Positions 3,788 through 28,847 are shown, counted from the first letter of the stretch. The stretch: DNA of 32,000 nucleotides from Planctomycetales bacterium (GCA_022646745.1 CP060262.1:1920001-1952000); one strand, 5' to 3'. Translations and numbers: made by a program. The notes: generated by a model not told the origin, from the letters alone.

Positions 3788-3825
3788 CTGACCTCCGCGC
3801 CTCGCTACACCCTACAAATGAGGTC

Positions 3826-12947: not shown

Positions 12948-15824
12948 TTAGTCGTTCGGGTTGCTGCCGACGACCACCAGCTGGTCAGCGCCGGTCCAGG
13001 TGGACTCCTGCGCGCCCCAGAACAGGGTCAGGTCGTAGGTGTTGCCCGGGTCAAGGCTGCCGATCCACTGCGGGCCGGCACCGATCTTGGCGAAGTCCTC
13101 TGCGGTCGGGACGTAGATCGCGAGCACGTTGAAGCCGAGGCTGCCGAGGCCCGCCGCGACGAGGTTGATGTCGCGGACGTGGTTGCCAGCGCCGAAGCGC
13201 AGCTGGGCGTCACCAGCATGGGTGCCGCTGTACTCGAACCACATCACGTCCGGGGTGGCCATGCCGACGTTGTTGCCGTTGAGCACCTTGCTGCTGTAGT
13301 CGCGGTTGGCGAGCTGCAGGTTGCCGCGGGTGCCGTCGTCGGTGATGTTGATGCCCCAGTTGACGCCGCTGATGTCGGTGTCGAACACGAACTCGTTGAT
13401 CACGATGTTGCCGTAGCCGAGGGAGTTCTGGTTGCGGTCGAAGACCTGGAAGCCGTACTCACCCACGTTGAGGGCCAGGATGTCGAGGTCGATGCGGCCG
13501 GTGCGCGGGTTGGCGGTGTTCAGGTTGATCACGCCGAGGTCGGGAGCGTCGAAGGGCACGGACTGGCCGTTAACACCCTGGGCGAAGCGCACGATCGGGG
13601 ACAGCGCGTTGGTGCTGGTCTCCTGGCCGATCGGGAACTCGCTGCCACCGTTGACAAGCATGTCGTTGTAGGCGGCGTAGTCCACCGGGCTGGCGGTCTT
13701 CTCCACGAGGTCGAAGACCACGCTGTCGTCACGGCGGATGTTGCCGGCCGGGAAGAACACGTACAGCATGGAGGTGTCGTCACCAAGCTCGTTGCCCTTC
13801 GGGAAGGTCTCAAGCTCGGTGGCCGGCGGAGCCGGAGTGGCCACGAGGAACTCACCCGGCTTGTTCACGCTGGACCAGGTGCCGCCGACACTCAGGTGCA
13901 GGCCATAGGTGTGGTCCGGGGTGACGTTGAGCTGGGTCATCGCGCTGAAGCCGTAGGGGCCGCCCGGCATTTCGGGATCGCGGATGCTGAACTCGCCGCC
14001 GCCTGCGGGCTCGGCCGGGGAGTAGTCGAACACGATGCTCTCAGCGGGGTCGCTGAAGTCGTACAGCACGAGGCTGACGGTGTCGAGGTTGGCAGGCTCA
14101 CCGGCGCTGCCCCAGAAGAAGGAACCCTGGATGGTGCCGGAGATCGAGCTGTCGAGAGCGTGGTCGCTGTCACCCGTGGTGCCGGCGCTGGTGGTGATGG
14201 ACTGGATCAGGGCCGCCTCGCCATCGGCGGAGACGTCCAGGTTCCAGCTCTTGTTGATCGCATTCGGCACGAAGTCACCGTTCTGCGCGAGGCTGACGGT
14301 GAAGCTGCCCTCGGCGGTGGTGGCGACGGTGCTGTCCGGGTCGTCATCCGGGAACACGGTGCCGCTGGCGCCGGTCGCGGTGGCGGTGAACTCAAGCACG
14401 CCGTCCCAGGTGCTGTGGAAGTCGTTGAAGCTGCTGTCACCGGCGGTGCTGGAGCTCCAGCCGAGGGCACTGACGACGGCCGCGAGGGCGTCATCGTAGT
14501 CCTGCTGGTCCATGCCGGCCAGGTCAGCGGAGGTGAAGGCGGTCTCGGGGCTGCCGTCGCCGTCCTGGTCCCAGGAGCCGGAGATGCCGGTCACGTCGAA
14601 GTTGTAGCTGCCGTTGGCAGGCCAGTTGAAGGTGTCGCTGCCATCGGGGGTCTGCTCGTTGTCAGACTCGTCGGTGATCGTCACGTCGAAGTCGGTGACC
14701 TCGATGCCGTTCACGCCGCTGGCGACATAGGTCACTGCGGTCGGGCTGACGCTCAGCGGGCCGTTGGCGCCGCTGCCGGTGCTGCGGGCCGCCACGAAGA
14801 CGGTGCCGTCAGCGTTGGTGTCAGCTGCCTGCACCTGGGCCATCGTGATCTCGCCGTTCCAGTGCATCCACACGCCGCTCCAGTCAGTGGTGCTGGTGCC
14901 GGTGGAAGCGCTGGGGGCTGAGCCGCTGCTCCAGGTGTGGGTGGCAACGACGGTCTCGCTGCCGCTGAAGGTATCGCTGTCGCCGAGCAGCACCTCGATC
15001 GCGGAAGTGCTCTCACCGAGGTGCACTGCCAGCGGGGTGATGTCGGAGATGTTGACACTGGTGTTGTAGTCGTAATCGGCCTTGGCGCCGCTGAAGTCGG
15101 AGTCGCCGACGGTCTTGCCCAGCAGGATGCCCAGCGGGGTGATGTCGCCGATGTTGGACTCGCCGTCCTGGTTGCCGTCGCCGCCGGCGAAGGCGCCCCA
15201 GAACATGTAGTCAGCCGGGGTGCTGTCACTGACGGTGCTGTTGCCGAACTGGAAGGTGCTCCAGGGGCTGGACAGCGTGGAGCTGCCCTCGCCGTAGGCG
15301 AAGATCACCGCATTGCTGTGGCCGTCGCCGGCAGCGCTCTGGGCACGCATCGGGCCGTTCTCGAACTCGATGCGGGCGAAGCTGCCGCTGAAGGGAACAC
15401 TGTTGTCAGCGTCAACCTGGCCGATGGCCACGATGCCGGGCTGGTTGAATGAGGACAGTTCCACATCGGACTCCAGCAGGCCGCTGAAGCTGGCGGAAAC
15501 GGGGCTCATGCGGTCGGCATCGTAATGCAGGTCAAGCGCCACACTGGCGTGCGCCGCATCGTCCATGATGCTGATTTCCACAACGGTTTTCGTGCCCTCG
15601 CTGAAGCTCCGCAGATCAATGCTGGAGTTGAGCGAGCTGTCACGGTAGCCGCGGTCGTTGTACCTGACTGCCTTGAAATCGCCCTCGCTCACGCCGATGA
15701 ACGTGTCAACCGGCGCGAGTTCCATGTCGGAATTCATTGCTGAACCGCCGCCACAGGAAACCAGGCCCGCAATCAGGGCAGCCATTGCCATAAGCAACAG
15801 TGCCGTATGTCTGGGATACTTCAT
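12948..15824 (-). CDS. Large surface lipoprotein with cohesin-like N-terminal module and dockerin-like Ca-loop pair
   Basis: 958 aa. Signal plus lipobox LVSC (Cys24). SD GGTGGAGA. aa ~75-160 are cohesin-like (VVEISIMDDAAHASVALDLHYDADRMSPVSASFSG...FARIEFE). aa 214-270 are two dockerin-like loops plus helices (DGNQDGESNIGDITPLGILLG; DYDYNTSVNISDITPLAVHLG). The remainder is T/S/D/G-rich beta-type sequence. Confidence 0.85.
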   Translation of the reverse strand: MKYPRHTALLLMAMAALIAGLVSCGGGSAMNSDMELAPVDTFIGVSEGDFKAVRYNDRGYRDSSLNSSIDLRSFSEGTKTVVEISIMDDAAHASVALDLHYDADRMSPVSASFSGLLESDVELSSFNQPGIVAIGQVDADNSVPFSGSFARIEFENGPMRAQSAAGDGHSNAVIFAYGEGSSTLSSPWSTFQFGNSTVSDSTPADYMFWGAFAGGDGNQDGESNIGDITPLGILLGKTVGDSDFSGAKADYDYNTSVNISDITPLAVHLGESTSAIEVLLGDSDTFSGSETVVATHTWSSGSAPSASTGTSTTDWSGVWMHWNGEITMAQVQAADTNADGTVFVAARSTGSGANGPLSVSPTAVTYVASGVNGIEVTDFDVTITDESDNEQTPDGSDTFNWPANGSYNFDVTGISGSWDQDGDGSPETAFTSADLAGMDQQDYDDALAAVVSALGWSSSTAGDSSFNDFHSTWDGVLEFTATATGASGTVFPDDDPDSTVATTAEGSFTVSLAQNGDFVPNAINKSWNLDVSADGEAALIQSITTSAGTTGDSDHALDSSISGTIQGSFFWGSAGEPANLDTVSLVLYDFSDPAESIVFDYSPAEPAGGGEFSIRDPEMPGGPYGFSAMTQLNVTPDHTYGLHLSVGGTWSSVNKPGEFLVATPAPPATELETFPKGNELGDDTSMLYVFFPAGNIRRDDSVVFDLVEKTASPVDYAAYNDMLVNGGSEFPIGQETSTNALSPIVRFAQGVNGQSVPFDAPDLGVINLNTANPRTGRIDLDILALNVGEYGFQVFDRNQNSLGYGNIVINEFVFDTDISGVNWGINITDDGTRGNLQLANRDYSSKVLNGNNVGMATPDVMWFEYSGTHAGDAQLRFGAGNHVRDINLVAAGLGSLGFNVLAIYVPTAEDFAKIGAGPQWIGSLDPGNTYDLTLFWGAQESTWTGADQLVVVGSNPND

Positions 15825-16124
15825 TTCTCCACCTTACGGGATTGAATTGAACAATAAGGAGGCAAGGTGAACGAAAGGAGCTTTTTACTCCCAAACGCTT
15901 CTGTGCATGTCCTGTACCGGATAGCCAAAACTCACCCGCACTCACTCTGTATGTGCCCGAATACTAACAGAACAAAGGAAACAGTCACTACATTTAGTTC
16001 GCACTTAACGGGGCTTCACACGGAGTTTACCGGGGCTGCAATCCGGGCTTGATAGGGCCTCAGGGTGTGTGCGATGATAGGAAACGCGCAATCCCCGCGC
16101 GACCCTCACAATCCGGACCAGTCA

Positions 16125-19100
16125 ATGAAAGCGTGCAGAGTATTTGTCAGTGTCCTGCTCCTGATCCTGGGCATCGGCAGCCAGGCCATGGCAGCCCGCG
16201 AGGCCCGCAGCATGTCCCGTCCCGAAATCAGCGCGGACGGGCAGACGGTGTACTTCTCCTGCTGGGGAGACATCTGGGCGGCACCGCGTGACGGCAACAG
16301 CCCGGCGCGCAGGCTGAGCGCCAATGTGGCCTATGACACCGGCCCGATGCTCTCGCCGGACGGCCTGACGATCGCCTTCAACTCCAACCGCTTCGGCAAC
16401 TGGGACATCTTTACGATGCCGGTGCAGGGTGGCCCGCCGACCAGGCTGACCTTCGACAGCACCAGTGACTATATCGGCGACTGGAATGCGGACGGCAGCG
16501 GCATCCTCGAATTTGCCCGCTATGACCAGCTATGGGACAACTCGATGTTCGAGGTGCCACTGGATGCCGGCACCCCGCGGCGGGTGAGCAATGATGACCA
16601 TGACGGGCATGTCTATGGACGCTACGTGCCGGGCGGCAGCCTGATCGCCTACTGCCGCGAGCCCGGCAGCTGGTCGCGCAAGAACTACCACGGCACATTC
16701 GCGTATGACATATATACATATGACACGGCTACCGGTGTGCACAGCCAGCTCACCGACTACGACGGCCAGGACTGCTGGCCGCTGCCCAGCCCGGACGGCA
16801 AGCTGATCTACTTCGTCAGCGACCGCAGCGGGGACGAGAACCTGTGGGTGATGAACACCGACGGCAGCGGGCTCAGGCAACTGACGCAGCTGAAGAAGAA
16901 TGGCCCGCGCTGGCCGCAGCTGAGCGCCGATGGCGATGAGATCATCTACGAGAAGATGGGCCAGCTGTTCGTGCTGCCCACGGCCGGCGGCACGCCGGAG
17001 CGCATCAGCGTGAGCTTCTCTGACGACCCGGCACGCGAGATGGTGGAGGAGCAGACCTTCCGCGGTGATGTCGGTGAGTACAAGCTGTCCCCGAATGGCA
17101 ACTACTTCGCTTTGGTGGTCAGCGGTGACATCTACATCCTGAAGAACCCGGACAGCTACAAGGAGGATGAGAAGCCCGACCAGGACCTCTCACAGGCCTT
17201 CCATGTGGTGGAGACCCCGGCGCGTGAGATGAGCATCGACTGGCTGCCTGACAGCAAGCGCCTGGTCTATCTCTCGGACCGCAATGATCAGTTCGACGTC
17301 TACATGCTCAACCTCGACACGATGGAGGAGACCCGCCTGACGGACACGCCGGGCGACGAGGTCGGCGTGGATGCTGCGCCGGTCGGCAGCAAGGTGATGT
17401 GGTACGGCGACAAGTTCAGCCTCGTGATGCATGACGTTGACAGCGGGGACGAGCAGGTCGTGCACAGCGGGCGGATCTTCGGCATCACCAGCGGGCTGGG
17501 CTTCGAGTGGAGCCCGGACGCGAAGTGGATCAGCTTCGTCGAGACCTATTACGACGGCGTTGACAACGCCTTCATCATGAACCTCGAGGACCGCCAGCCG
17601 ATCGACATCTCGCGCAGCCCCGATGGCAACTCATGTCCGCAGTGGAGCCCGGACGGCAAGTGGCTGGCCTTCGGCGAGGGTGAGGGCTTCGGCGAGGTCT
17701 ACATGCCCTACTACCCTGGCCTGTCCGCCGGCAGCGAGGTGATGCTGATCGAGCTGGACCCGGAGCAGGACGAGTACGACATGGACCTGCTGTTCGAGGA
17801 AGACATGCCAAAGCCGGAGCCGATCGAGGAGGAGAAGGCTGAGGGCGATGCCAAGCCGGACGACAAGGCTGATGCTGGCAAGCAGGACGAGAAGCCGGCT
17901 GACAAGGAAAAGGACGAGAAGGACAAGGATGTGCCCGAGGTGGTGATCAGGCTGGACCGCATTGACGAGCGGGCCTACCCGATCCGCCGCAATGAGGGTG
18001 GGGCGCGCGGGCCGCTGTTCTCGCCGGATGGCAAGTACCTGATCTACACCACGCGCCACGATGGCGACGTCGAGTGGTGGACCTATGAGCTGGAGAAGCG
18101 TGACATCGCGCGACTTGACAGCGGACGCAAGGGCAGCCCGCAGTTCACCAAGGACGGCAAGCGCATCTACTTCAACGAGGGTGGCAACATCAGCTACCTC
18201 GACATGCGTGGCAGCAAGTCCAGCGGCGGTGGCCGGGTGGCAACGACCTGCACGCAGGTGATCGACCGCTACGAGCGCTGGGACCAGATGCTGGTGGAGG
18301 GCTGGCGCGCGCTGAAGTACTACTTCTACGACCCGGACATGATGGGCGTGGACTGGGACGACGTACTGAGGCGCTACCGCCCGCGCGTGCAGGAGGTCGG
18401 CACCTTCACGGAGTACGGCACTCTGTACCGCGAGATGATCGACGAGCTGGGCGCTTCGCACATGGGCTACTACGTGCGCGGCAGCGAGCAGGAGGCACCG
18501 TCCGACAGCACGGCGGAACTTGGCGTGCTGTATGACGATGGCTTCGCCGGCCCGGGCTGGCGGATCCTCGGCATTGTCAGCGACGGCCCGGCGGACCGGG
18601 ATGCCAGCCGGCTGTACCCCGGTGACGTGATCCTCTCGATCGATGGTGAGAGCCTCAATGCCCAGAGCAACCGCGGCCGGATCCTCAACAATAAGTCCGG
18701 CCAGCCGCTGCGCCTCGAGGTTGCCAACGGTGACGCAGCGCGTGAAACGCTCGGTGACGATGCGGGTGAGACACGCACGGTCGACCTGAAGCCGGCTGGC
18801 GGGATGCGCGGACTGCACTACCGTGACTGGGTACGTGACAACCGTGATACGGTGGACCGCGAAAGTGGCGGGCGGATCGCCTACCAGCACATCCAGGGCA
18901 TGAACATGTCCAGCCTGATCCAGTTCCGCAAGGAGCTGTACGCCGACAGCTACAAAAAGGACGCGCTGATCATCGACGTGCGCTTCAACGGCGGTGGCTC
19001 CACCAGCGTGGAGATCATGGAGATGCTGACCCGCCAGGCCGCCTACTGGCGCCAGCTGCCCGGCGCGGAACGCAAGGAGGCGGCACGCCAGCTGATGTGG

Positions 19101-19427
19101 GAGGGCCCGATCGTGGTGCTGATCAACCCGCACAGCTACAGCAATGCGGAGATCTTCGCGCACATCATGAAGGACCACAAGATCGCCACGGTGATCGGCG
19201 AAACCACCGGTGGCAACGTGATCTCCACCGGGGGCTACGGCCTGGTGGACGGCAGCTTCCTGCGCATGCCGGGCTACCTCAACATGAAGTACGACGGCAC
19301 GGATATGGAAGGCAACGGCTGTGTGCCGGACATCATGGTGCCGATCGACCCGATGCAGCTGGCGGAAGGCGTTGACAACCAGCTGGAGGCCGCGATCGGA
19401 TTCCTGCTGGACGAGCTTGGCAACTGA
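16125..19427 (+). CDS. Tricorn protease homologue (PD40/beta-propellers + PDZ + S41 peptidase), with signal peptide
   Basis: 1100 aa from ATG 16125 (MKACRVFVSVLLLILGIGSQAMA, AXA cleavage-type signal). TolB/PD40-like repeats (PEISADGQTVYFS, LSPDGLTIAFNSNR, PSPDGKLIYFVSDRSGDENLW, WSPDGKWLAF, FSPDGKYLIYT). PDZ-like segment (GDVILSIDGESL). S41 core (ALIIDVRFNGGGSTS...IVVLINPHSYSNAEIF). The track start 16065 (GTG) adds 20 non-signal residues. Confidence 0.88.
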   Translation: MKACRVFVSVLLLILGIGSQAMAAREARSMSRPEISADGQTVYFSCWGDIWAAPRDGNSPARRLSANVAYDTGPMLSPDGLTIAFNSNRFGNWDIFTMPVQGGPPTRLTFDSTSDYIGDWNADGSGILEFARYDQLWDNSMFEVPLDAGTPRRVSNDDHDGHVYGRYVPGGSLIAYCREPGSWSRKNYHGTFAYDIYTYDTATGVHSQLTDYDGQDCWPLPSPDGKLIYFVSDRSGDENLWVMNTDGSGLRQLTQLKKNGPRWPQLSADGDEIIYEKMGQLFVLPTAGGTPERISVSFSDDPAREMVEEQTFRGDVGEYKLSPNGNYFALVVSGDIYILKNPDSYKEDEKPDQDLSQAFHVVETPAREMSIDWLPDSKRLVYLSDRNDQFDVYMLNLDTMEETRLTDTPGDEVGVDAAPVGSKVMWYGDKFSLVMHDVDSGDEQVVHSGRIFGITSGLGFEWSPDAKWISFVETYYDGVDNAFIMNLEDRQPIDISRSPDGNSCPQWSPDGKWLAFGEGEGFGEVYMPYYPGLSAGSEVMLIELDPEQDEYDMDLLFEEDMPKPEPIEEEKAEGDAKPDDKADAGKQDEKPADKEKDEKDKDVPEVVIRLDRIDERAYPIRRNEGGARGPLFSPDGKYLIYTTRHDGDVEWWTYELEKRDIARLDSGRKGSPQFTKDGKRIYFNEGGNISYLDMRGSKSSGGGRVATTCTQVIDRYERWDQMLVEGWRALKYYFYDPDMMGVDWDDVLRRYRPRVQEVGTFTEYGTLYREMIDELGASHMGYYVRGSEQEAPSDSTAELGVLYDDGFAGPGWRILGIVSDGPADRDASRLYPGDVILSIDGESLNAQSNRGRILNNKSGQPLRLEVANGDAARETLGDDAGETRTVDLKPAGGMRGLHYRDWVRDNRDTVDRESGGRIAYQHIQGMNMSSLIQFRKELYADSYKKDALIIDVRFNGGGSTSVEIMEMLTRQAAYWRQLPGAERKEAARQLMWEGPIVVLINPHSYSNAEIFAHIMKDHKIATVIGETTGGNVISTGGYGLVDGSFLRMPGYLNMKYDGTDMEGNGCVPDIMVPIDPMQLAEGVDNQLEAAIGFLLDELGN

Positions 19428-19701
19428 TCAGCCGGACAGCCGGATTCTGCTGAACCTGCTTTTGAGCGGCAGTTAACCGCGTTCAAATCCACGCGCCTGT
19501 CAAATCCGGTAACATTCCCGCAAACAGGATTTGTACTGGAAGTCAGAAGGCTGACAGGCAGTCCCGGGAGTATGTTGGCAACGGCCGGACCCGCGACCCG
19601 GCCGTGCAGTGGCGCGCAGGCATTCGCAGACGCAACAGTCGTCCAGGCCCGGATGGGCAGCCCACACAGACGGGCAGATCATTTACTGGGAGAAAACTCG
19701 A

Positions 19702-20070
19702 ATGAAGAAGTTCCTCACCGGCGCAATGCTGGTCCTTTCCGCCGCGATCATCATCACGAGCCTTGCCTTCGCGCAGGGTAGCCCCAACGAGCCGCCCGTG
19801 GCCGGCATCAATGATGTGATCATCATCATCAACGGCCGGGACAACGATGACAAGAAGAGCGTTGACGGGACCCCGAGCTATGACCTCGACGGCGAGGTCG
19901 TGCACTACCGCTGGGACCTCGATGGCAACGGCAGCTTCGAGACCGACACGGGCGATGTGCCGCGCGCCGAGGTCGGTTTCACTGAACCGGGCCAGTACTG
20001 GGTCGGCCTGCAGGTGACCGATGACGACGGTGAGACCAACACCCAGTACTCCTGGGTGACCCTTGAGTAG
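19702..20070 (+). CDS. Small secreted PKD-domain protein
   Basis: 122 aa from ATG 19702, with SD GGGAGAA upstream. Signal peptide MKKFLTGAMLVLSAAIIITSLAFAQG. PKD-like core DGTPSYDLDGEVVHYRWDLDGNGSFE...VGLQVTDDDGET. Confidence 0.75.
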   Translation: MKKFLTGAMLVLSAAIIITSLAFAQGSPNEPPVAGINDVIIIINGRDNDDKKSVDGTPSYDLDGEVVHYRWDLDGNGSFETDTGDVPRAEVGFTEPGQYWVGLQVTDDDGETNTQYSWVTLE

Positions 20071-20197
20071 CTGATCAATTACCGCGCTCTGCATGGCGGG
20101 CCCGCCGGCCGGTGGGTCCGCCGTGCCCGCTGGCACGATTCCCCGCGCTAGAATTCTTCCACTAAGCGCATGCCCCAGGCATGCCCAGTTGGAGAGA

Positions 20198-21745
20198 ATG
20201 ATGCGTAGAAGCTTCCTGATGACGGTCCTGCTTATGGTGTCCGCGATCCTCCTGCTCAGTGCCCCGGCACTGGCGGAGGAACTGAACCTCGGCATCGTGA
20301 GCAGCAATGACAGCCATGGGCACATCATGCCCTTCAGCCTCAACGGTGAGCCGGGCTGGGGCGGGATGGCCCGGCGCCGCGTGGCGATCCAGACGGCCCG
20401 CGCCGACACCGACTACTACTGGATGGTGCTGGACGCCGGTGACGTGTTCCAGGGCACGCCGATCTCCAACATGCTGACCGGTTTCCTCGACATCGAGTGC
20501 ATGAACCAGATGGGCTATGACGCGATGTGCCTCGGGAACCATGAGTTCGACTTCGGCTACGACCTGATCCGCGGCCGCATGCCGGACGCCAACTTCCCGA
20601 TGCTGTCCTGCAACGTGATCGACAAGGAACGCGGCACCAGTGTCGGCGAGCCCTACCACATCTTCCGGCGCGGCGACTACCGTATCGGCGTGATCGGCTT
20701 GACGACGCAGACCCTGCTGGGTGAGACCAACCCGCGCGTGGCGGACTACGTGGATGTCTACGACCCGGTGCCGATCGTGCGCTCGCTGGCACAGTACCTG
20801 CGCAGCATCGGCGTTGACATCGTGATCGCCGTCGGGCATCAGGGCTACGGCCGCGACCAGGCAATGGCCGAGGCGATCCCCGAGCTGGACGTGATCGTCG
20901 GCGGGCATACCCATACCAAGCTCGATGAGCCGGACCGCGTCGGTGACGTGGTCATCACTCAGAGCTGGGAGTGGGGCAAGCAGATCGGCGTACTGAAGCT
21001 GAACTTCGAGCGTGACAGCGAGGACGAGCGCTTCCGGCTGGCCTCATACGAGAACGAGTACGTGCCGATGAGCCCGGACAAGCCCGAGGACGACGGCATG
21101 AAGGCCTTTATCGCGGACTACGACCAGCGCTTCTCCAAGGAGATGGACCGCTTCGTCTGCACCGCGCTGCAGGACTTCCCGGTGGACGAGGTGCGCATTC
21201 GCGAGAACGCACTGGCTGACATGATCGCCGACAGCATGCGCCAGGCAACCGAGGCCGACGTGGCCTACTTCAACGGTGGCAACTTCCGTGCCGGGCTGGA
21301 AGCCGGTGAGGTGAACTTCGGCGACCTGTACGGCGTACTGCCCTATGACAACTTCCTGATGAAGGTCCCGATGCCGGGCTGGAAGCTGATCGAAATCCTC
21401 GAGCATGCCGGCCTGCAGTACGGTGACGGTGGCTTCCCGCAGGTCAGCGGACTGCGCCTGCGCTATGAGGACATGAACCTCGTCAGCGCACAGGTGCTGC
21501 GCGGCGGGGAGTACGTTGACATTGACCCGAATGAGCAGTACCTGTTCCTGACAACGGACTTCATGGCGATCGGCGGTGACGGCTTCCCGATGGACGAGGA
21601 CCCCTATGGCCCGGGCTACACCGGCATGGAGCAGCGCTCGACCTTCGCGCAGTGGGCCTCCCAGCAGCGTGAGCTGTCCTGGCAAACCGACGGCCGCGTG
21701 GTGTTCGACTGGGTGAACATGGAGGACCCGGGCATCGCGGACTAG
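20198..21745 (+). CDS. Secreted bifunctional metallophosphatase / 5'-nucleotidase family protein
   Basis: 515 aa from ATG 20198, with SD GGAGAGA. Signal peptide MMRRSFLMTVLLMVSAILLLSAPALA. Metallophosphatase motifs NDSHGH, DAGD, GNHEFD and GGHTH. C-terminal 5'-nucleotidase-type domain. Confidence 0.88.
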   Translation: MMRRSFLMTVLLMVSAILLLSAPALAEELNLGIVSSNDSHGHIMPFSLNGEPGWGGMARRRVAIQTARADTDYYWMVLDAGDVFQGTPISNMLTGFLDIECMNQMGYDAMCLGNHEFDFGYDLIRGRMPDANFPMLSCNVIDKERGTSVGEPYHIFRRGDYRIGVIGLTTQTLLGETNPRVADYVDVYDPVPIVRSLAQYLRSIGVDIVIAVGHQGYGRDQAMAEAIPELDVIVGGHTHTKLDEPDRVGDVVITQSWEWGKQIGVLKLNFERDSEDERFRLASYENEYVPMSPDKPEDDGMKAFIADYDQRFSKEMDRFVCTALQDFPVDEVRIRENALADMIADSMRQATEADVAYFNGGNFRAGLEAGEVNFGDLYGVLPYDNFLMKVPMPGWKLIEILEHAGLQYGDGGFPQVSGLRLRYEDMNLVSAQVLRGGEYVDIDPNEQYLFLTTDFMAIGGDGFPMDEDPYGPGYTGMEQRSTFAQWASQQRELSWQTDGRVVFDWVNMEDPGIAD

Positions 21746-21857
21746 GTTGATCTGCCGTCTCATGCGAGCATTCGACGGTCTGGCGCTGCGGCTGCGCATT
21801 CGCGCATCCGGGTCGCGCTGGAGTTGAATGCTTTCATTATCCAGATGAAGAAGAGAT

Positions 21858-22038
21858 GGGTAGCGGTGGCGCCTTGCGCCAATTGAAAGGGCATCTCCCA
21901 AAGTAATGTGACATTTCCAGATTTCGCAATACCTGCCAGATCAGGTTGAAAGCAAGCGCGATATTCCCTTATCCGGAATGTCAGGTTCGGACTGGTGATG
22001 CAATCTCTCTCAGTTGGCGCAAGGCGCCACCGCTACCC
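21858..22038. repeat. 181-bp element bounded by perfect 25-bp inverted repeats (MITE-like or long hairpin)
   Basis: gggtagcggtggcgccttgcgccaa (21858-21882) is the exact reverse complement of ttggcgcaaggcgccaccgctaccc (22014-22038). The match extends to 29 bp with one mismatch. The interior (~130 nt) is AT-richer and has further imperfect pairing (gtgacatttcc / ggaatgtca). It lies between convergent gene ends. Confidence 0.85.
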
Positions 22039-22093
22039 TGAATCGTGTATGTATCAGGAACGGGAATAAGGCTGTGGCAAGCGCGGGCCTGGC

Positions 22094-22621
22094 TCAGTCG
22101 TCATCATCGTCGTCATGGCCGCGCCGCTCGCCTTGCATGGCGGGGGCAGCGCCTGAGCTGACGGGCAGCAGGCCATCGCCGCGGATCTCCGGGTGCGATA
22201 TCTTGCCGCCGAGGTTGGCGGTCAGCGCGAACAGCACACAGGCCGCCAGTGAGACCAGCAGCGCCAGTCCGGTGGACCAGCCGGGGTACTGCTCGCGGCC
22301 GCGGCCGGCGAGCAGTGCAATGATTGCCAGGATCCCTCCGGCCAGTCCGGCGATGCGCGCGATGTCCGCCATTTCCTCATGCTCGTGGATCGCCGGCTCG
22401 CTCACATTGGGCTGGTGTTCCACCATATGCTCCGCCGGCTCACCGCTGAGGTACACCGGTACGGTGAAGATGCCGACGGCCAGCAGCGTTGCCAGGCCGG
22501 CCGAGAACAGCGCACGGCTGCGGAAGCTGAAGCCGCCGCCGAGAAGCAGTAGCGCGAACACACTGCCGATCACCGGGATGTGGTTGAGCATTAGGTGCAG
22601 GTGGGCCTGGTTGATCTGCAT
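22094..22621 (-). CDS. Hypothetical four-TM membrane protein, His-rich, poly-Asp tail
   Basis: 175 aa. Strong SD AAGGAG. N-terminus HLHLMLNHIPVIG. Four hydrophobic helices. A loop HMVEHQPNVSEPAIHEHEE. C-terminus GHDDDDDD. It loosely resembles DUF2231-type proteins from memory. Confidence 0.7.
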   Translation of the reverse strand: MQINQAHLHLMLNHIPVIGSVFALLLLGGGFSFRSRALFSAGLATLLAVGIFTVPVYLSGEPAEHMVEHQPNVSEPAIHEHEEMADIARIAGLAGGILAIIALLAGRGREQYPGWSTGLALLVSLAACVLFALTANLGGKISHPEIRGDGLLPVSSGAAPAMQGERRGHDDDDDD

Positions 22622-22711
22622 GGACTTACTCCTTTGGCAATCAGTCTGCGCCGCGAAAGCGCAACAGCTGCGACGAGGATTATCGAGTGTCCGATGGAAT
22701 TTGTTTCAATG

Positions 22712-22723
22712 ATTTCCGGAAAT
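22712..22723. promoter_or_regulatory. Perfect 12-bp palindrome ATTTCCGGAAAT in the cassette-A / membrane-gene spacer
   Basis: The palindrome is seen directly at 22712-22723, about 90 nt upstream of ATG 22621. It is a candidate dimeric regulator site. There is no other support. Confidence 0.2.
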
Positions 22724-22754
22724 GAGGATGCCTGTCAGTTCAGCCCAGCCGCAT

Positions 22755-24320
22755 TCAGGGCCTGAGCGCCACCAGCTCTTCATCCTCGGTGGTGTAGAAG
22801 GTGCCATCGCCGGTCACCACTATGTCCTGCTTCATGTCCGGGATGCGGTACAGTTCGTGGCCATCGCGGTTGAAGGCGGCCAGGTGGCCCTGGCTGCGCA
22901 CGAAGACCTGGCCATCCGGGCCGAACTCAACCTGGTCGAAGTAGTTGCCGGAGCGCTTGTACTGCCACAGCACGCTGCCTTCCGGGCTGATGCACTGCAG
23001 CAGGTAATGCGAGATCACGTAGATCCGCCCATCTGGCCCGACGCTGAGCTCGCCGCTTGGTCCGTTGTCAATCGTGATCCCCCAGATGCGCTCGCCGGTG
23101 CGACTGTTGAGCCGCAGCAGTTCCGGTTCGCCGGACAGGCTGCCGCTGGTATAGCCGAACAGGTAGATTGAATCTCCGGCGGGCAGCAGGATGTCCCGCT
23201 CACTGGCGGCATCAATGCTGTAGCGGCTGCCGTCCTCACGCCACAGTTCGCGGCCGTTGCCGGCATCCAGCGCAAACAAGCTGCAGCCGTGGCTGCCATT
23301 GCGGCTGCAGATGGCATAGAGCACATTGCCGGGGCCCAGCAGCAGCTTGTCAAATTCATTGACATCTGGATCACTGATCCCGCGCTGCCAGCGAAGCTTG
23401 CCGTCCGCTGCGATGCAGGCCAGCCCATGCTCAGCATCACGCCTGCTGGCGCGGCTGGCAACGAAGCATGTGCCATCCGCCGCGGTGGTGAGGCCGCTGC
23501 CCGGGATGCCGTCGATCGCCGTGCGCCACAGCTCGGAGCCGCTGCGGTCCATGCAGACGAGGTCCGTCTGGCGCACCGTCTCCATCGAACCGGGCCAGCC
23601 CTCGCGCTCCTGCTCGCGGCTGCCTTCCAGCACGAACAGCACGTTGCCATTGCCGTCATCGAATGGCCCGGCGGTCGGAGCCAGCCTGTCACCGGCCTTC
23701 ACACCGGCGAGGCTCGGGACCTCCCACAGGCGCTGGCCGCTTCCGCCGTCGATGTAGACGACGGCATTCGAGGTGCGGATCGCCAGGTCGCCGTTGGCGA
23801 GGGGCTGGCGCTGCTTGAGCGACCAGTTGCCAATCCCGTAGCTCCACTGCATCTCGCCCTCGTCAACGCAGAACAGCATGTTGCCATCCACGCCCTGCAC
23901 ATAGCAGCGCCCGTCCGGCCCGAGGCTCAGGCCAGCCAGCTTGCCACCGATGTGGTAGCGCCAGAGATAGAGCTCCGCCCGTGCGGCGGCCGCGGCGGCC
24001 TTGTCAGCCCTGTGCTTGTCAATCACCTGCTGCTGCACCACCGCGGCATCCACCACACCGGGCTCGACGGTCCCCTGTGCGGCGGACTGGCTTTCGACCA
24101 CCACCGGCGGCCGCATCGCGAAGTAGACAACCGCCACCACCATCGCGGCCATGATCGCCACGAGCAGCACGGTCTGCCAGACCCGCAGGCTGTGGAAGAC
24201 CAGCTGCTCCGAGGGCTGGATCTCCTCCTCGACGTAGTTGTCCTCCAGTGCATCGCTGAAGGCCACCGCCGGGTCCAGCCGTTCATTGATCTCCTGCGGG
24301 TCAGGCCGCTCCTCAATCAC
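22755..24320 (-). CDS. Cassette A large subunit: acidic-tail, single-TM-anchored PQQ-like beta-propeller protein
   Basis: 521 aa. GTG start preceded by SD GGGGGTGA and overlapping the upstream stop (GTGA). Acidic N-tail (ERPDPQEINERLDPAVAFSDALEDNYVEEEIQPSEQ). TM helix WQTVLLVAIMAAMVVAVVYFAM. Propeller blades (LFCVDEGEMQWSY, VVYIDGGSGQRLWE, LVCMDRSGSELWR, LFALDAGNGRELWR, LLRLNSRTGERIWG, LQCISPEGSVLWQY). Paralogue of 25088-26662. Confidence 0.85.
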   Translation of the reverse strand: MIEERPDPQEINERLDPAVAFSDALEDNYVEEEIQPSEQLVFHSLRVWQTVLLVAIMAAMVVAVVYFAMRPPVVVESQSAAQGTVEPGVVDAAVVQQQVIDKHRADKAAAAAARAELYLWRYHIGGKLAGLSLGPDGRCYVQGVDGNMLFCVDEGEMQWSYGIGNWSLKQRQPLANGDLAIRTSNAVVYIDGGSGQRLWEVPSLAGVKAGDRLAPTAGPFDDGNGNVLFVLEGSREQEREGWPGSMETVRQTDLVCMDRSGSELWRTAIDGIPGSGLTTAADGTCFVASRASRRDAEHGLACIAADGKLRWQRGISDPDVNEFDKLLLGPGNVLYAICSRNGSHGCSLFALDAGNGRELWREDGSRYSIDAASERDILLPAGDSIYLFGYTSGSLSGEPELLRLNSRTGERIWGITIDNGPSGELSVGPDGRIYVISHYLLQCISPEGSVLWQYKRSGNYFDQVEFGPDGQVFVRSQGHLAAFNRDGHELYRIPDMKQDIVVTGDGTFYTTEDEELVALRP

Positions 24321-24901
24321 TGTTCACCCCCGCTGGATTGCCCGCCTGCGGAGCTAGCCTGATCAAGTTCCTTCTTCTTCTCCTTGTATTCGATCAGTTC
24401 CCGGCACTTGCCGCAGACCGTCTGCTCAAGTCCGGCCTTGAATTTCTCCGGATCCGCCATTGCGGAATTGCTGGTCCGGGCCGGCACAAACTCGCCCGCA
24501 TGCCCGCAGGCGTAAGTGAATTCATATTTGTAATACAGCTCGGGGGTAGTGATCGGGTTGACAAGTTTCGGATCTGGCTGGCCGACCTGGATCACCGTCT
24601 GGTGCTCATCCTGGCTGACAATGTAGGCCGGCAGGTCGCCGACCAGCTGCCCGTCACCAGTCGGAATCCCTGTCAGAGAGCTGGCTGCATCAGGTCCGGC
24701 TGGCTGGAGAGCACCAGCGGCTGCCTGCGTGCGCATGCGCGGAATGCTTACGAAGACTATCAGCACAACCATCAGGGCCAGCAGCAGCGCGATCACCACA
24801 TTCCTGATGACGAATATGCGCGCGAGCTTTGTTTCCGGCCGCTCCCGGCGCCTCGGCCTCCACCTGTCCCTGTCCTTTCGTCTGTCCTGCAATCCCGCCA
24901 C
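24317..24901 (-). CDS. Cassette A small subunit: Arg-rich-tail single-pass protein with C-x-H...C-x-x-C motif
   Basis: 194 aa. GTG start. Basic N-tail (RRKDRDRWRPRRRERPETK). TM IFVIRNVVIALLLALMVVLIVFV. Conserved C-terminal block YACGHAGEFVP...AMADP...CGKCRELIEYKEKKKE. Paralogue of 26659-27204. Confidence 0.75.
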   Translation of the reverse strand: MAGLQDRRKDRDRWRPRRRERPETKLARIFVIRNVVIALLLALMVVLIVFVSIPRMRTQAAAGALQPAGPDAASSLTGIPTGDGQLVGDLPAYIVSQDEHQTVIQVGQPDPKLVNPITTPELYYKYEFTYACGHAGEFVPARTSNSAMADPEKFKAGLEQTVCGKCRELIEYKEKKKELDQASSAGGQSSGGEQ

Positions 24902-24931
24902 CTCTGTCCCGTGACGATTTCCTGTATGTCA

Positions 24932-24960
24932 TGAGACCCCGGAAACCACATTCCGGTTCA
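24932..24960 (-). promoter_or_regulatory. Candidate ECF-type promoter of cassette A (TGAACC-N18-TCTCA)
   Basis: The minus strand reads TGAACCGGAATGTGGTTTCCGGGGTCTCA. The -35-like and -10-like blocks are the only conserved islands shared with the cassette B upstream region, apart from the 24-nt leader. 30 nt separate the -10-like block from the GTG. Confidence 0.35.
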
Positions 24961-25087
24961 CCAGCAGTGATTCCAGAATACCGCAGATCCCGGGTGAGTC
25001 TCGTAGCAGGTCCGACAAGCGCCCATGCTGGAATGACAGACTGGCTGTCGCTGGGTGATCGACTGGCTGAACAGGGGGTATAGCTGA

Positions 25088-26662
25088 TCAGGGCTGGAAT
25101 GCGACCAGGTCCCCGTCCTCGACGGTGTAGAAAATCCCATTTTCATCAATCGCAAAGGGTTTATTGCCAGTTGGCAGTCGGATTAGTTCCTGGCCTGTGG
25201 AATCAAGGACCCTGATCCGGCTGTCGTTGTGAACGAAGATCCGCCCATCTGCAGCGGGCTCGACCTGGAAGTAGTTGGAAGTGCTGGTTTGCAATTCCCA
25301 CTGCACCTGGCCAGCCGGGCTGATGCAGCTCAGCAGGCCATGCGTGATCAGGTAGATGCGTCCGTCTGGGCAGACGTCGAAGTCATACTGCGGCTCGCTG
25401 TTAAGGTTGAGGGACCAGTTGATCCGGCCGGTTCGACTATCCAGAGCAAACAATTCCAGAAAGTCGGATTGGCTACCGCTGCGGTAGCCATAGACAAACA
25501 GGACACCATTGGCAGCCTGCGTCACTGCTCCGCCAGCCCGATGTGTGCCCAGTCGCAACCGCTCACCGGTTTCACTCCACAGGAGCCTGCCGCTGCGAGT
25601 GTCCAGCGCATGGACTGTGCCGGTGAAACTGTTGCTGTTACCACTGAAGGCCAGCAGCACACCCGCTGCATCCAGGCGCAGCATGTCGATCTGCGCTGTC
25701 AGTTCCGTTGAAGCCTCGAATTGCCACAACAGTTTTCCGTCCCGGTTGATGGCGGCAATCCGGTTTGGGTCTCCATGCTTCGAATGGTTGCTGGCAAAGT
25801 AACTCGTGCCATCGGGACCGACGACCAGGCCATCGCCAGGCCGGCCATCAATGGCCTGTTGCCAGATTGTCCTTCCTTCATTGTCCGCGCAACGCAGGGC
25901 ACACTGCATCACCTTCTGCATGCTGCCCGGCCATTCCGGGTTTTCCTGTTCGCGGCATGCATCCATGGTGAACAGCAGGTTTCCACGCCCATCTGCAAAT
26001 GGTCCGGAGGTCGGCACTTCCGTTGCCAGGTGCCTTGGCAGGTCCTGCGCCGGCTGCTTCCAGACCTGCCGGCCAGTGGAGCCATCCAGGTAGAACATCG
26101 CCATTTCGTTGCGAATTGCCACGTCGCCATTTTCCATTGCCAGAGTCTGCTCCGGCCGCCAGCGACCGAGCCCGAAACTCCACAGCAGGGAACCTTCGCG
26201 GATTGCGTACAGTGTGTTTCCCTTAATGCTTTGGCAATAGCAGACATCGCCTGGCCCGAGGTACACGCCTGATGCATCGTCCCCGATGTGGTAGCGCCAG
26301 AGGAACAGTTCGGCACGGGCGGCCGCTATCGCGGCCTTCTCAGCAGCCAGTCCGGGTTTGTCAGGCGGCCTGGCAATTACAATCTCGCGGATCGGGCTTT
26401 GCTGGGGTAAGGGGGGCGGTGCCGTGATTTCAGGCGTTGCCGGTTCAGGGCGTTGCATCGTGAAGTAGACAACCGCCACCACCATCATGGCCATGATCGC
26501 CACAAGCAGCACGGTCTGCCAGGCACGAAGGCTGTGGAATGTAAGCTGCTCCGAAGGCTGGATCTCCTCTTCGACATAGTTGTCCTCTAGTGCATCACTG
26601 AAGGCCAGCGCCGGGTCCAGCCGCTCGTTGATCTCCTGCGGGTCTGGTCGCTCCCCATTCAC
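25088..26662 (-). CDS. Cassette B large subunit: acidic-tail, single-TM-anchored PQQ-like beta-propeller protein
   Basis: 524 aa. GTG start with SD GGAGGTG and a GTGA overlap with the upstream stop. 62 of the first 70 residues are identical to cassette A by hand alignment. The propeller part is clearly homologous but much more diverged. Confidence 0.85.
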   Translation of the reverse strand: MNGERPDPQEINERLDPALAFSDALEDNYVEEEIQPSEQLTFHSLRAWQTVLLVAIMAMMVVAVVYFTMQRPEPATPEITAPPPLPQQSPIREIVIARPPDKPGLAAEKAAIAAARAELFLWRYHIGDDASGVYLGPGDVCYCQSIKGNTLYAIREGSLLWSFGLGRWRPEQTLAMENGDVAIRNEMAMFYLDGSTGRQVWKQPAQDLPRHLATEVPTSGPFADGRGNLLFTMDACREQENPEWPGSMQKVMQCALRCADNEGRTIWQQAIDGRPGDGLVVGPDGTSYFASNHSKHGDPNRIAAINRDGKLLWQFEASTELTAQIDMLRLDAAGVLLAFSGNSNSFTGTVHALDTRSGRLLWSETGERLRLGTHRAGGAVTQAANGVLFVYGYRSGSQSDFLELFALDSRTGRINWSLNLNSEPQYDFDVCPDGRIYLITHGLLSCISPAGQVQWELQTSTSNYFQVEPAADGRIFVHNDSRIRVLDSTGQELIRLPTGNKPFAIDENGIFYTVEDGDLVAFQP

Positions 26663-27204
26663 CTTGCACCTCCATTGGTCCGCCCACTGGATGCGCTGGC
26701 CTGGTCTGGTTCCTGCTTCTTCTCTGAGTATTCAAGCAATTCGCGGCATTTCCAGCAGATCCTCAGCTCCTGTTGCGCCTGGTACTTCAAGGGGTCTGCC
26801 ATTGCGGGATTGCTCGGATGGGAAGGAATGAACTCTCCCACATGTCCGCAGGCATAGCTGAATTCGCCCTTGTCAACCACCACCCGCTTCAGCTTCGGGT
26901 TGACGGACTTCGGGTCAGGCTCGCTGACGTAGATAACTGTCTGGCTTACCTTCGGTCTGACGACGTGGACCGGCTGGTCACCAGTCTGCAGATCATCGCC
27001 TGTCGGCAGGGCATTGCCTCTGGAAACCTGCGCCCGCATGCGCGGAATGCTTACGAAGACTATCAGCACAATCATCAGGGCCATCAGTAGTGCAGTCAAC
27101 ACATTCCTGATGACGAAAATGCGCGCGAGCCTCGTTTCCGCGCGCTCCCTGCGCTGCAGCATTGATCTGTCCCTCTCCTTTCGTCTGGCCTTCAATCCCG
27201 CCAC
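26659..27204 (-). CDS. Cassette B small subunit: Arg-rich-tail single-pass protein with C-x-H...C-x-x-C motif
   Basis: 181 aa. GTG start. Basic tail RRKERDRSMLQRRERAETR. TM IFVIRNVLTALLMALMIVLIVFV. Motif YACGHVGEFIP...AMADP...CWKCRELLEYSEKKQE. Confidence 0.75.
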   Translation of the reverse strand: MAGLKARRKERDRSMLQRRERAETRLARIFVIRNVLTALLMALMIVLIVFVSIPRMRAQVSRGNALPTGDDLQTGDQPVHVVRPKVSQTVIYVSEPDPKSVNPKLKRVVVDKGEFSYACGHVGEFIPSHPSNPAMADPLKYQAQQELRICWKCRELLEYSEKKQEPDQASASSGRTNGGAR

Positions 27205-27234
27205 CTCTGTCCCGTGACGAATTCCTGTGAACAG

Positions 27235-27262
27235 ACAGACCGCTTAACATGCAATCCGGTTC
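27235..27262 (-). promoter_or_regulatory. Candidate ECF-type promoter of cassette B (CGAACC-N18-TCTGT)
   Basis: The minus strand reads GAACCGGATTGCATGTTAAGCGGTCTGT. It is in the same register relative to the GTG start as in cassette A (30 nt from the -10-like block to the start). Confidence 0.35.
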
Positions 27263-27305
27263 GCGCGGTCCCAAACATGGATTACGCAGATCGCCATTCT
27301 GCACT

Positions 27306-28294: not shown

Positions 28295-28352
28295 TCCTTC
28301 ACTGATGTGCAATGGCGATATCGAAAGGCGTTATTGCCTTATAATTGCCCGC

Positions 28353-28847
28353 ATGAGACCGAATATCAACCTGACCGGCCTGCTGCTGCTGGTCGCCGCA
28401 AGCTGCCTGTTCCTTTCGGCCTGCCCCAGCGGGGATGATGGCGCCAATGTATCGAAGGCTGATACCACGGGTGCCGACCCGGCTGTGAGTGCTTCCAACC
28501 AGAGTCTGCCTCCGGCGGACAGCGCGGCCGGTTCCGAGGCCGCTGCAAACCCCTGCGGCACTGAAGCACCTGCAGCAGTGGCGGATGCCAGTGATGTCTT
28601 CAAGACGGCCAACTGCACGATGTGCCACGGCCAGAACATGGAAGGCGGCCAGCTTGCCCCGGCACTGAAGAACATCGCCGGCGAATGGAACAAGGCCGAG
28701 CTGACCAGCTACGTGCGTGACGCGTCCAAGTATGAGGACAAGGGCAACCGCCTGAGCCACGATCCGAAGTACGTGATCGAGATGCCGCCCTTCCCGATGG
28801 GTGAAGATGACCTCAACAAGCTCGTGGACTGGCTGCTCACCAAGTAG
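28353..28847 (+). CDS. Class I c-type cytochrome lipoprotein
   Basis: 164 aa from ATG 28353. Signal plus lipobox LFLSAC. Ala/Ser/Pro-rich linker. Haem motif CTMCH. Distal Met candidate in VIEMPPFP. Confidence 0.8.
   Translation: MRPNINLTGLLLLVAASCLFLSACPSGDDGANVSKADTTGADPAVSASNQSLPPADSAAGSEAAANPCGTEAPAAVADASDVFKTANCTMCHGQNMEGGQLAPALKNIAGEWNKAELTSYVRDASKYEDKGNRLSHDPKYVIEMPPFPMGEDDLNKLVDWLLTK

Follow-up and report, generated by a model that had tools for sequence, protein, structure and literature searches.

A tandemly duplicated gene pair of a Planctomycetales bacterium links a rare family of small bitopic proteins to membrane-anchored BamB-like propellers

The propellers described here have recognisable functional analogues in BamB and in the Rv3035–FecB pair. 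BamB (YfgL), an eight-bladed propeller of the same Pfam family (PF13360) and fold (Foldseek ~1e-12 to our propeller), is a non-enzymatic periplasmic scaffold that is active solely within a hetero-oligomer, the BAM complex. However, BamB is an outer-membrane lipoprotein with neither a transmembrane (TM) helix nor a cytoplasmic tail, and its partner is BamA rather than a small bitopic protein. Rv3035 of Mycobacterium tuberculosis, an eight-bladed propeller of the periplasm, pairs with FecB in a tight 1:1 heterodimer (27 nM; PMC13041763; PDB 9p3f/9p3g), and this heterodimer supports an envelope glycosyltransferase, an arabinofuranosyltransferase (PMC13041763). Its propeller is detectably related to ours, and it resembles the pair proposed below in combining a BamB-like propeller and a non-propeller partner with an envelope-building role. 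In contrast, FecB is a lipoprotein with another fold, encoded away from Rv3035 in an actinobacterial lineage and devoid of a Cys/His knuckle, and Rv3035–FecB has no paired cytoplasmic tails.

By PDB profile, the nearest solved relatives of our propellers are the archaeal protein 3hxj (1e-61) and Bacillus YxaL (1e-47), followed by BamB (1e-20 to 1e-24) and Rv3035 (8e-13; Foldseek 9e-10). The first two, which are the closest natural solved sequences and carry non-catalytic PQQ-like repeats, are single secreted or soluble proteins with no TM anchor, no conserved cytoplasmic tail and no small partner gene. The combination of a PQQ-type propeller with a small charged helical subunit also recalls, in concept, the methanol dehydrogenase MxaF/MxaI, whose small subunit is basic and helical; however, our proteins are without the quinoprotein signature, the small subunit is non-homologous and both proteins are membrane-anchored.

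The window analysed here is a 32,000-nucleotide stretch of a Planctomycetales bacterium (CP060262.1:1920001-1952000), with positions counted from its first letter. Four ORFs, all on its minus strand, form two consecutive cassettes, A and B, each with a small gene followed by a large one:

27205..27294, minus strand: cassette B leader, homologous to the A leader, with the start of homology marking the left boundary of the duplicated unit (alignment, BLAST)
27204..26659, minus strand: smallB, 181 aa (start at GTG 27204) or 178 aa (start at TTG 27195); basic N-tail, then a TM helix at aa 35-53 (nt 27046-27102), a linker and, at the C-terminus, the Cys/His domain
26744..26862, minus strand: Cys/His motif of smallB, F-x3-C-G-[H/C]-x-G-x-F-x-P-x22-C-x2-C-R (pattern match)
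26659..26662, minus strand: start/stop overlap GTGA of smallB and largeB (read from the sequence)
26662..25088, minus strand: largeB, 524 aa; acidic N-tail, then a TM helix at aa 51-69 (nt 26456-26512), a Pro-rich linker and the PQQ_2 beta-propeller at ~aa 121-524 (nt 25091-26302)
24902..24991, minus strand: cassette A leader, homologous to the B leader and containing the conserved ACAGGAAATCGTCACGGGACAGAGGTGGCGGGATTG (SD and start region; alignment, BLAST)
24901..24317, minus strand: smallA, 194 aa (start at GTG 24901) or 191 aa (start at TTG 24892); basic N-tail, then a TM helix at aa 35-53 (nt 24743-24799), a disordered linker at aa 55-111 and, towards the C-terminus, the hairpin+helix domain at aa 120-188
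24402..24520, minus strand: Cys/His motif of smallA, same pattern (C132, H134, C163, C166; pattern match)
24317..24320, minus strand: start/stop overlap GTGA of smallA and largeA, TTGA in the L001 allele (read from the sequence)
24320..22755, minus strand: largeA, 521 aa; acidic N-tail in which helices are predicted, then a TM helix at aa 51-69 (nt 24114-24170), a disordered linker at aa 69-116 and the beta-propeller at aa 118-521 (nt 22758-23969)

Two of these proteins have database counterparts: smallB is identical to the NCBI MAG protein H7A35_07690, called there from an internal ATG, and largeB is annotated merely as a "PQQ-like beta-propeller repeat protein" (UNM09933.1). The first-pass annotation had read the locus as two tandem copies of one small-plus-large architecture, which the ORFs, the protein identities and the DNA homology bear out. 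SmallA and smallB share 56% identity (E 1e-74) and largeA and largeB 45% (E 3e-153), a paralogy well above chance at the sequence level. The homologous DNA blocks (24925..22755 and 27228..25088; alignment and BLAST) begin ~25-100 nt 5' of the small genes and end exactly at the large-gene stop codons, so that the two-gene cassette, no more and no less, is what was duplicated. The tandem layout was found again in four independent assemblies (L004-L007; 99.3-100% identity), while a related strain or assembly (L001/L002) has a single cassette. The L001 sequence is 100% identical to the window across 9.2 kb and then diverges by 10-28% through the small gene. Collapse during assembly is an unlikely cause of this single-cassette form, judging from the sequence, because the crossover spans just ~8-10 shared bases. 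A scan of the locus for promoters and terminators gave no signal above chance, and an Rfam search gave no match.

The same annotation had assigned GTG starts to all four genes, and had described GTGA overlaps of 4 nt together with a separate SD for each large gene. The overlaps can be read directly in both copies, along with an SD-like sequence 5' of the large gene (GGGGGTG in A, GGAGGTG in B), and the smallA/largeA overlap is retained in L001 despite its different start codon. The GTG assignment is uncertain for the small genes, which are preceded by a conserved GAGGTGGYGGGATTG, present also in L001 and in the distant L011; this element probably fits better as an SD (GAGGTG) with a spacer and, three codons further downstream, a TTG start (24892, 27195) than as a spacerless GTG start. 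In several relatives, a gap of 6-35 nt replaces the overlap. From this arrangement, translational coupling of the small and large genes appears likely, but six loci with two propeller genes per small gene argue against a simple 1:1 form of the fixed stoichiometry that was also proposed at first.

The large proteins are, by sequence, bitopic PQQ_2 (BamB-like) propellers. Both score above the PF13360 cut-off of 27.6 bits (largeA 84.6 bits, E 1.1e-23; largeB 74.9 bits, E 9.5e-21). An AF2 model of largeA, of moderate confidence and built from a shallow 5-sequence alignment, is all-beta across residues 118-521, and Foldseek matches the model to PQQ-like propellers with probability 1.00. More specific assignments were rejected. 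Scores for BamB proper lie far below the cut-offs (29.8 vs 285 bits for TIGR03300 and 16.7-19.2 vs 423 bits for NF008351), and BamB-type lipoprotein anchoring does not agree with a 50-residue acidic N-tail, a 19-residue TM (H 2.7-2.8) and no lipobox. A PQQ-dependent dehydrogenase is rejected by its family scores (TIGR03075 16.9 vs 480 bits, PF01011 14 vs 26.7 bits) and by a propeller of just ~400 aa; an AfsK-type Ser/Thr sensor kinase by an N-tail of 50 aa, no Pkinase match and 13-26 vs 1300 bits with the AfsK model; and a ZAS anti-sigma factor by no HxxxCxxC motif or Pfam match and a sigma gene in none of the loci. Membership in a known anti-phage defence or phage protein family was rejected too: PADLOC had no match for the large or small proteins, and the PHROG matches were generic propeller repeats alone.

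The small ORFs are real genes under purifying selection, as comparative sequence data indicate. Between smallA and its L001 allele, dN/dS is 0.18, close to the 0.19 of the large gene, which confirms the coding signal. No entry in Pfam, NCBIfam, PADLOC, PHROG or PDB matched the small proteins; the PDB sequence profile gave no meaningful match, and Foldseek with the small-protein model returned nothing (best E 1.4). A FecB-type partner was rejected on the same footing, given no Pfam/NCBIfam match and a predicted architecture different from the periplasmic-binding-protein fold of FecB. The family is very rare, with ~14 clusters among 5.8 billion, and all source-named members come from Planctomycetales MAGs. 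A hand-built degenerate motif pattern that recovers all known members gave one true and three chance matches in ~185,000 species genomes, three true and two chance matches in metagenomes, and a single match, due to chance, in viral contigs.

In all 11 readable loci, a bitopic propeller gene (tail, TM and PQQ_2) lies directly 3' of the small gene, at a spacing of -4 to +35 nt. This linkage holds down to 28% identity and persists across two different syntenic contexts, and six distant loci carry a second propeller gene upstream. The more distant propeller relatives P0013 and P0014 have neither TM nor tail, and no small partner. On the points that the first reading had set for checking it, the gene neighbourhoods show homologues of the small ORF beside TM-anchored propellers, and profile, PADLOC, PHROG and PDB searches place neither the small protein nor the pair in a characterised family. 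Nor did literature searches, including on PQQ-like propellers in Planctomycetes, turn up a description of such a small-plus-propeller pair. The gene pair is thus undescribed and its function is inferred; across the loci, there was no conserved third gene, enzyme or client protein, hinting at an envelope process.

In the C-terminal domain of the small protein, the three cysteines C132, C163 and C166 never vary within the family, whereas His and Cys alternate at position 134 even between close relatives; the invariant residues are common to homologues at 28-38% identity. In the AF2 model of the small protein, the TM helix (pLDDT ~91) is followed by a disordered stretch (residues 55-111) and a C-domain with pLDDT 80-88, in which a hairpin turn bears C132-G-H134 and the N-terminal end of a helix bears C163/C166; by secondary-structure placement, the four conserved ligands have a hairpin-knuckle plus helix-N-terminus layout. 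The three invariant cysteines and the His/Cys swap at 134 suggest that this Cys3His/Cys4 set may be a metal site, probably for zinc. A similar layout occurs in treble-clef and zinc-ribbon knuckles, where two ligands lie at a beta-hairpin turn and two in the first turn of a helix and His and Cys interchange. The small protein differs from them in its knuckle spacing (C-x-[H/C] instead of CxxC) and in its predicted periplasmic location. Similarity to Zn_ribbon_SprT was weak (E 0.03) and seen in two of ten members, and searches by sequence and by fold gave no significant match to any known zinc-finger family. Cys/His zinc sites are commoner in cytoplasmic domains, which counts against the periplasmic placement. 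Cysteines number 2-9 per propeller ectodomain, are mostly not conserved and often come to an odd total; this is unusual for an oxidising periplasm and makes the topology questionable. A Tat signal peptide in the Arg-rich small N-terminus was rejected from a reading of the sequence and the usual features of Tat signals, the hydrophobic segment being too long and too hydrophobic (H 3.4) and RR-x-F-L-K being absent.

The features first ascribed to the proteins, a basic small tail (net +8), an acidic large tail (net -9/-10), one TM each and a PQQ_2 propeller, are all present. The tails have net charges of opposite sign in eight of eight small/large pairs, but the strong basic/acidic contrast is confined to the window's clade; beyond it, net charges are just ±1-5 and the complementarity of the tails is weak (±1-2). 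The TM anchors of the small and large proteins are alike and co-vary (ALGC/ALAC vs ALM/AxM); hhalign aligned the two over 30 columns with 76.6% probability, a match that may be compositional. In the large proteins, tail and TM are conserved at least as well as the propeller, and the linker least. Values for tail, TM and propeller are 0.90, 0.89 and 0.41 between largeA and largeB, and 0.52, 0.68 and 0.33 between L010 and L022 large1. Likewise, dN/dS in the large gene is 0.16 in tail plus TM vs 0.53 in the propeller. Between A and B, however, dS is 0.29-0.40 in the tail/TM-coding parts vs ~1.2, and the A/B conservation there is therefore partly gene conversion, not selection. An N-terminal motif of the type LDxRLxxLxAxxxxV is found in both propeller subtypes.

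The reading that we favour, tentatively and at somewhat less than an even chance, is that each cassette encodes a two-subunit bitopic inner-membrane complex presenting a non-enzymatic periplasmic binding platform. Both proteins would have a cytoplasmic N-terminus and a periplasmic C-terminus, an orientation that we infer from the positive-inside rule, together with the short basic tails seen in relatives. The single TM helices and the juxtamembrane and cytoplasmic tails would hold the subunits together, in the window's clade by pairing a small +8 tail with a large -10 tail, and flexible linkers of ~50-60 residues would hold both ectodomains off the membrane. There, the small hairpin+helix domain, putatively stabilised by metal (Cys3His/Cys4, probably zinc), may dock onto the BamB-like propeller, which would have no enzymatic activity and would serve an envelope process as a platform that binds proteins or glycans, comparable to BamB in BAM and to Rv3035–FecB. 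Duplication would have yielded two complexes with near-identical membrane and cytoplasmic parts and diverged periplasmic parts, the latter probably giving two different binding specificities.

Rather unlikely, in our estimate, is that the pair is instead a transmembrane sensor or co-receptor, in which propeller and small ectodomain would sense a periplasmic or envelope cue and the large protein's conserved acidic, amphipathic helix at the N-terminus would be the cytoplasmic output. That helix might bind or release an unlinked cytoplasmic target while the basic tail of the small protein masks or regulates it, in the manner of kinase-less PQQ-propeller sensor kinases (AfsK) or of anti-sigma-like partner switching. 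Consistent with this are the best-conserved cytoplasmic tail and TM beside fast-diverging ectodomains, the LDxRLxxLxAxxxxV motif shared by both propeller subtypes, the strain-level divergence hotspot in the ectodomain-coding part (the L001 breakpoint described above) and a weak local NCBIfam similarity to the AfsK propeller. Against it, no signalling gene of any kind, such as one for a kinase, a sigma factor or a response regulator, adjoins the pair in any of the 11 loci, there is neither a ZAS motif nor a kinase domain, and the second large proteins of L013 and L016 have tails of just 12 residues, so that the output motif is dispensable in some members. A fuller version, which we regard as quite improbable, is a hitherto unrecognised, Planctomycetales-specific envelope-spanning co-receptor in which a zinc-knuckle bitopic subunit joins a bitopic propeller via homologous TM anchors and charge-complementary tails, and which relays periplasmic binding to a cytoplasmic target through the conserved acidic N-terminal helix of the large protein without a kinase or sigma factor, and diversifies its ectodomains rapidly by duplication and strain-level recombination.

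That the small protein is no stable subunit but a factor dedicated to making, inserting or stabilising the propeller (insertion, folding, metal or disulfide handling) is decidedly improbable. The tight gene order with its likely translational coupling, the six loci where one small gene serves two propeller genes, and a Cys-rich motif that could serve thiol or metal chemistry would all suit such a role, but matching linker lengths and the co-varying similarity of the anchors fit stable pairing better, and after duplication each propeller copy kept its small gene, each of which diverged alongside its own propeller. There is very little prospect of a quinoprotein-type enzyme in which the small protein is a subunit, as in MxaF/MxaI, and which passes electrons to a nearby cytochrome c. 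The PQQ-like fold, the long charged helix of the small partner (AF2) and a cytochrome c gene ~1 kb off (28134-28847) bring it to mind; yet, besides the family scores far under cut-off, the propeller, at ~400 aa, is shorter than that of dehydrogenases (~600 aa), none of the methanol dehydrogenase small-subunit families matches the small proteins, and the gene for cytochrome c runs on the other strand, lies beyond a further gene and is unlinked in clade-2 loci. Least credible of all, and already largely refuted, is that these are co-transcribed neighbours of unrelated function or that the small ORF is one of the many long spurious ORFs that arise in high-GC DNA, as in our own ORF listing, given its dN/dS, its homologues with invariant motif residues, its linkage in two syntenic contexts and its conserved RBS/start context.

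The impact of the proposed two-subunit complex is limited by the rarity of the family, by its occurrence in uncultured organisms only and by no linked gene indicating a process. If the complex is real, the small proteins would be a new family, bitopic with a periplasmic Cys3His/Cys4 knuckle, and the obligate partners of membrane-anchored BamB-like propellers. It would also be the third case, after BamB/BAM and Rv3035–FecB, of PQQ-like propellers that work solely within heteromeric envelope machines. Planctomycetes, a phylum with unusual envelope biology, have many proteins annotated, without a function, as "PQQ-like beta-propeller repeat proteins", and the pair would provide the first handle on one of these.

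The window, taken from a 4.1-Mb contig in the MAG of an uncultured Planctomycetales bacterium, has four head-to-tail ORFs on its minus strand. They make up two cassettes, A and B, each encoding a small membrane protein and a membrane-anchored propeller:

27204..26659, minus strand, smallB, ORF of 181 aa
26662..25088, minus strand, largeB, ORF of 524 aa
24901..24317, minus strand, smallA, ORF of 194 aa
24320..22755, minus strand, largeA, ORF of 521 aa

The existing annotation calls the large genes only "PQQ-like beta-propeller repeat protein" and smallB hypothetical. The tandem two-gene cassette proposed in the first-pass annotation was borne out: smallA and smallB are 56% identical (E 1e-74), largeA and largeB 45% (E 3e-153), and DNA homology between the copies extends from ~25-100 nt 5' of each small gene exactly to the large-gene stop codon. 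Since these limits match the cassette, the duplicated unit is the two-gene cassette and nothing more. The proposed overlap of the second gene's start with the first gene's stop (GTGA) was likewise read at both small/large junctions, with an SD-like sequence ahead of each. Four independent metagenome assemblies (L004-L007) share the tandem arrangement, with 99.3-100% identity. In L004, which is 99.96% identical to the window, a 3-hydroxyacyl-CoA dehydrogenase gene (1845-2768) appears as two calls (74 and 225 aa), probably through an assembly indel rather than as a pseudogene.

Measured against the allele in the related contig L001, dN/dS was 0.18 for the small gene and 0.19 for the large gene. 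Because of this low ratio, and because small-protein homologues at 28-38% identity have invariant residues in common, the small ORFs carry a comparative coding signal, and the sequence evidence indicates that the cassette genes are coding, not high-GC ORF noise. The earlier claim that all four genes begin with GTG stood for the large genes, at their GTGA junctions, but not for the small ones, whose start is uncertain: the block GAGGTGGYGGGATTG, which is conserved in both cassettes as well as in L001 and distant L011, is better fitted by an SD (GAGGTG), spacer and TTG start than by a spacerless GTG start. The TTG was also picked by one gene caller (P0001); the two starts differ by three codons, which leaves the remaining analysis unaffected. 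L011 alone shares the window's clade, and the 5' end of its small gene (~365-425) has an in-frame TGA after the conserved SD/start block and before the TM-coding part (MVGLSKQQYKGKDRSTWL*RMYVVRN); the gene may start elsewhere or be a pseudogene, or the TGA may be a sequencing error.

The small family is very rare and confined to uncultured Planctomycetales. A word-indexed search returned only the window's own small proteins and one 81% relative, exhaustive phmmer against 1.84 billion representatives found seven true relatives, and with a profile search of 5.8 billion clusters the family grew to ~14 clusters. When the family's invariant columns were turned into a degenerate DNA pattern, scans with it recovered one true member in 185,579 species genomes (L018, an uncultured Planctomycetales MAG) and three in the metagenome collection; viral contigs yielded none. 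In every readable locus (window A and B, L001/L002, L010, L011, L012, L013/L015, L016, L018/L022, L026, L027), the small gene is followed, at -4 to +35 nt, by a gene for an N-tail, TM helix, linker and PQQ-like propeller, so that the linkage seen in the window is conserved; in one further contig, outside this count, the small gene and its downstream gene overlap by 4 nt. In six loci of the more distant clade 2, another bitopic propeller gene immediately precedes the small gene (order large1-small-large2), and the window's large proteins are nearer the large1 type (87-103 bits) than the large2 type (31-59 bits). More distant propellers that lack the TM/tail module have no small partner. Genomic neighborhoods differ between the two clades, and the small+large pair therefore moves as a unit; no third gene was consistently linked to it across the readable loci. 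On the same strand as largeA, and 133 nt downstream of it, is a 175-aa gene (22094-22621, minus strand) that is conserved beside the cassette in L001/L002, though not beside clade-2 cassettes. Judged by eye from its sequence, the product resembles a multi-pass membrane protein whose loop is rich in His and Glu and whose C-terminus is poly-Asp, and it had no Pfam, PADLOC or PHROG match; the gene could be a clade-specific third operon member.

Both large proteins match PF13360 (PQQ_2) well above the Pfam threshold, which places their propeller, by sequence, in the PQQ_2 superfamily. BamB equivalogs, quinoprotein dehydrogenase models and the AfsK model all scored far below cut-offs, and membership tests rejected an identity as BamB, quinoprotein, sensor kinase or anti-sigma factor. 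In the AF2 model of largeA (mean pLDDT 70, from a shallow alignment), short helices in the acidic N-tail precede the TM helix, a disordered linker (residues 69-116) and an all-beta propeller (residues 118-521), whose nearest solved structures are the non-catalytic PQQ-like propellers 3hxj and YxaL, followed by BamB, tetrathionate hydrolase and mycobacterial Rv3035. Tail and TM are conserved as much as the propeller or more, and the periplasmic linker least: largeA and largeB are 90% identical in the tail and 41% in the propeller, with dN/dS of 0.16 for tail+TM and 0.53 for the propeller. Since dS is also lower in tail+TM (0.40 vs 1.14), gene conversion contributes to this conservation as well.

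The small proteins had no match in Pfam, NCBIfam, PADLOC, PHROGs or PDB sequences, and the smallA model none by Foldseek (best E 1.4). In that model the TM helix is predicted confidently (pLDDT ~91), residues 55-111 form a disordered linker, and the C-terminal domain (pLDDT 80-88) comprises a beta-hairpin, short helices and a long charged helix, with C132-G-H134 at the hairpin turn and C163/C166 at the N-terminus of the charged helix. C132, C163 and C166 are invariant across the family, while position 134 is His or Cys and swaps even between close relatives. Where one of four clustered residues alternates between His and Cys, as in zinc sites, a metal ligand is the usual explanation and a disulfide is not, and for this reason we infer a putative metal site. 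Zn_ribbon_SprT matched weakly in 2 of 10 family members.

How might the two proteins work together? Their TM anchors are similar in sequence and vary in step: clade 2 has ALGC/ALAC and the window's clade ALM/AxM. The profile-profile match between them is marginal (76.6% probability, 30 columns). In clade-2 loci L010, L012, L013, L016 and L022, a single TM Cys sits at nearly the same depth in small (ALGC) and large2 (ALAC/ALGC); the window's clade has Met at this site in both partners. Net tail charges are opposite in sign in 8 of 8 pairs. The basic small tail and acidic large tail described in the first pass held for the window's clade (+8 and -10), the only one with strong charges, and not as a strong contrast elsewhere. 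Both partners have disordered linkers of ~50-60 residues (AF2). The Arg-rich small tail, the short basic large2 tails of L013/L016 and the Pro/Ala-rich linkers argue for an N-in, C-out topology of both proteins, with the caveat of 2-9 cysteines per propeller, mostly unconserved and often odd in number. Together, tail/TM conservation, similar anchors, opposite charges and matched linkers fit two subunits that would pair through their cytoplasmic and membrane-embedded portions, with the paired ectodomains displayed away from the bilayer. A kinase-less transmembrane sensor is the main rival and seems unlikely; a two-subunit periplasmic binding platform is the best explanation, which we hold tentatively.

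The locus also varies between strains. When window 14317-25000 was compared with L001 9808-20480, identity was 100% over 9.2 kb (14317..23499; also in L002/L003), and divergence of 3-28%, or 10-28% when taken per 100 nt, followed through the N-terminal half of largeA and through smallA. Cassette B is absent from L001, whose upstream region is a hybrid: distally it resembles the B leader and proximally the A leader, and the switch falls within a short shared GATCTGCG. Because of this hybrid, the L001 form points more to real recombination (cassette deletion/insertion, allele replacement) than to k-mer misassembly, and suggests a recombination hotspot with copy-number polymorphism.

Elsewhere in the window, a single 929-aa protein (5228-8017, minus strand) has both a PKD domain and a PQQ_2 propeller, and 19609-20070 encodes a small PKD protein; in the clade-2 loci L013 and L016, large PKD-repeat proteins are encoded immediately after the propeller gene. 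This may indicate a functional association, or merely that both domains are common in Planctomycetes. An uncharacterized 958-aa ORF (12948-15824, minus strand), conserved in L001 (18973 onward) and without a Pfam match, is overlapped by a 745-aa opposite-strand ORF and adjoins a tricorn-like protease gene (16065-19427). Positions 2001-4000 have a GC of 0.46-0.48 vs ~0.62 elsewhere and may be a foreign insert; ORFs 2601-3467 and 1898-2371 (both minus strand) in this stretch had no Pfam match, and the window contains no tRNA.

The first-pass annotation knew of no described system of this kind. The pair itself is indeed undescribed, but functional precedents exist, the nearest being BamB in the BAM complex and Rv3035–FecB. 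In the latter, recently described complex, the eight-bladed periplasmic propeller and its partner form a 1:1 heterodimer (27 nM), and the propeller supports an arabinofuranosyltransferase (PMC13041763). By analogy, the cassette would rate as a propeller-plus-partner envelope complex, an already known sort, whereas its small partner is a new family unrelated to FecB. The finding is real, conserved and undescribed, but without a linked process, and what it adds is the small subunit and the paired bitopic architecture.
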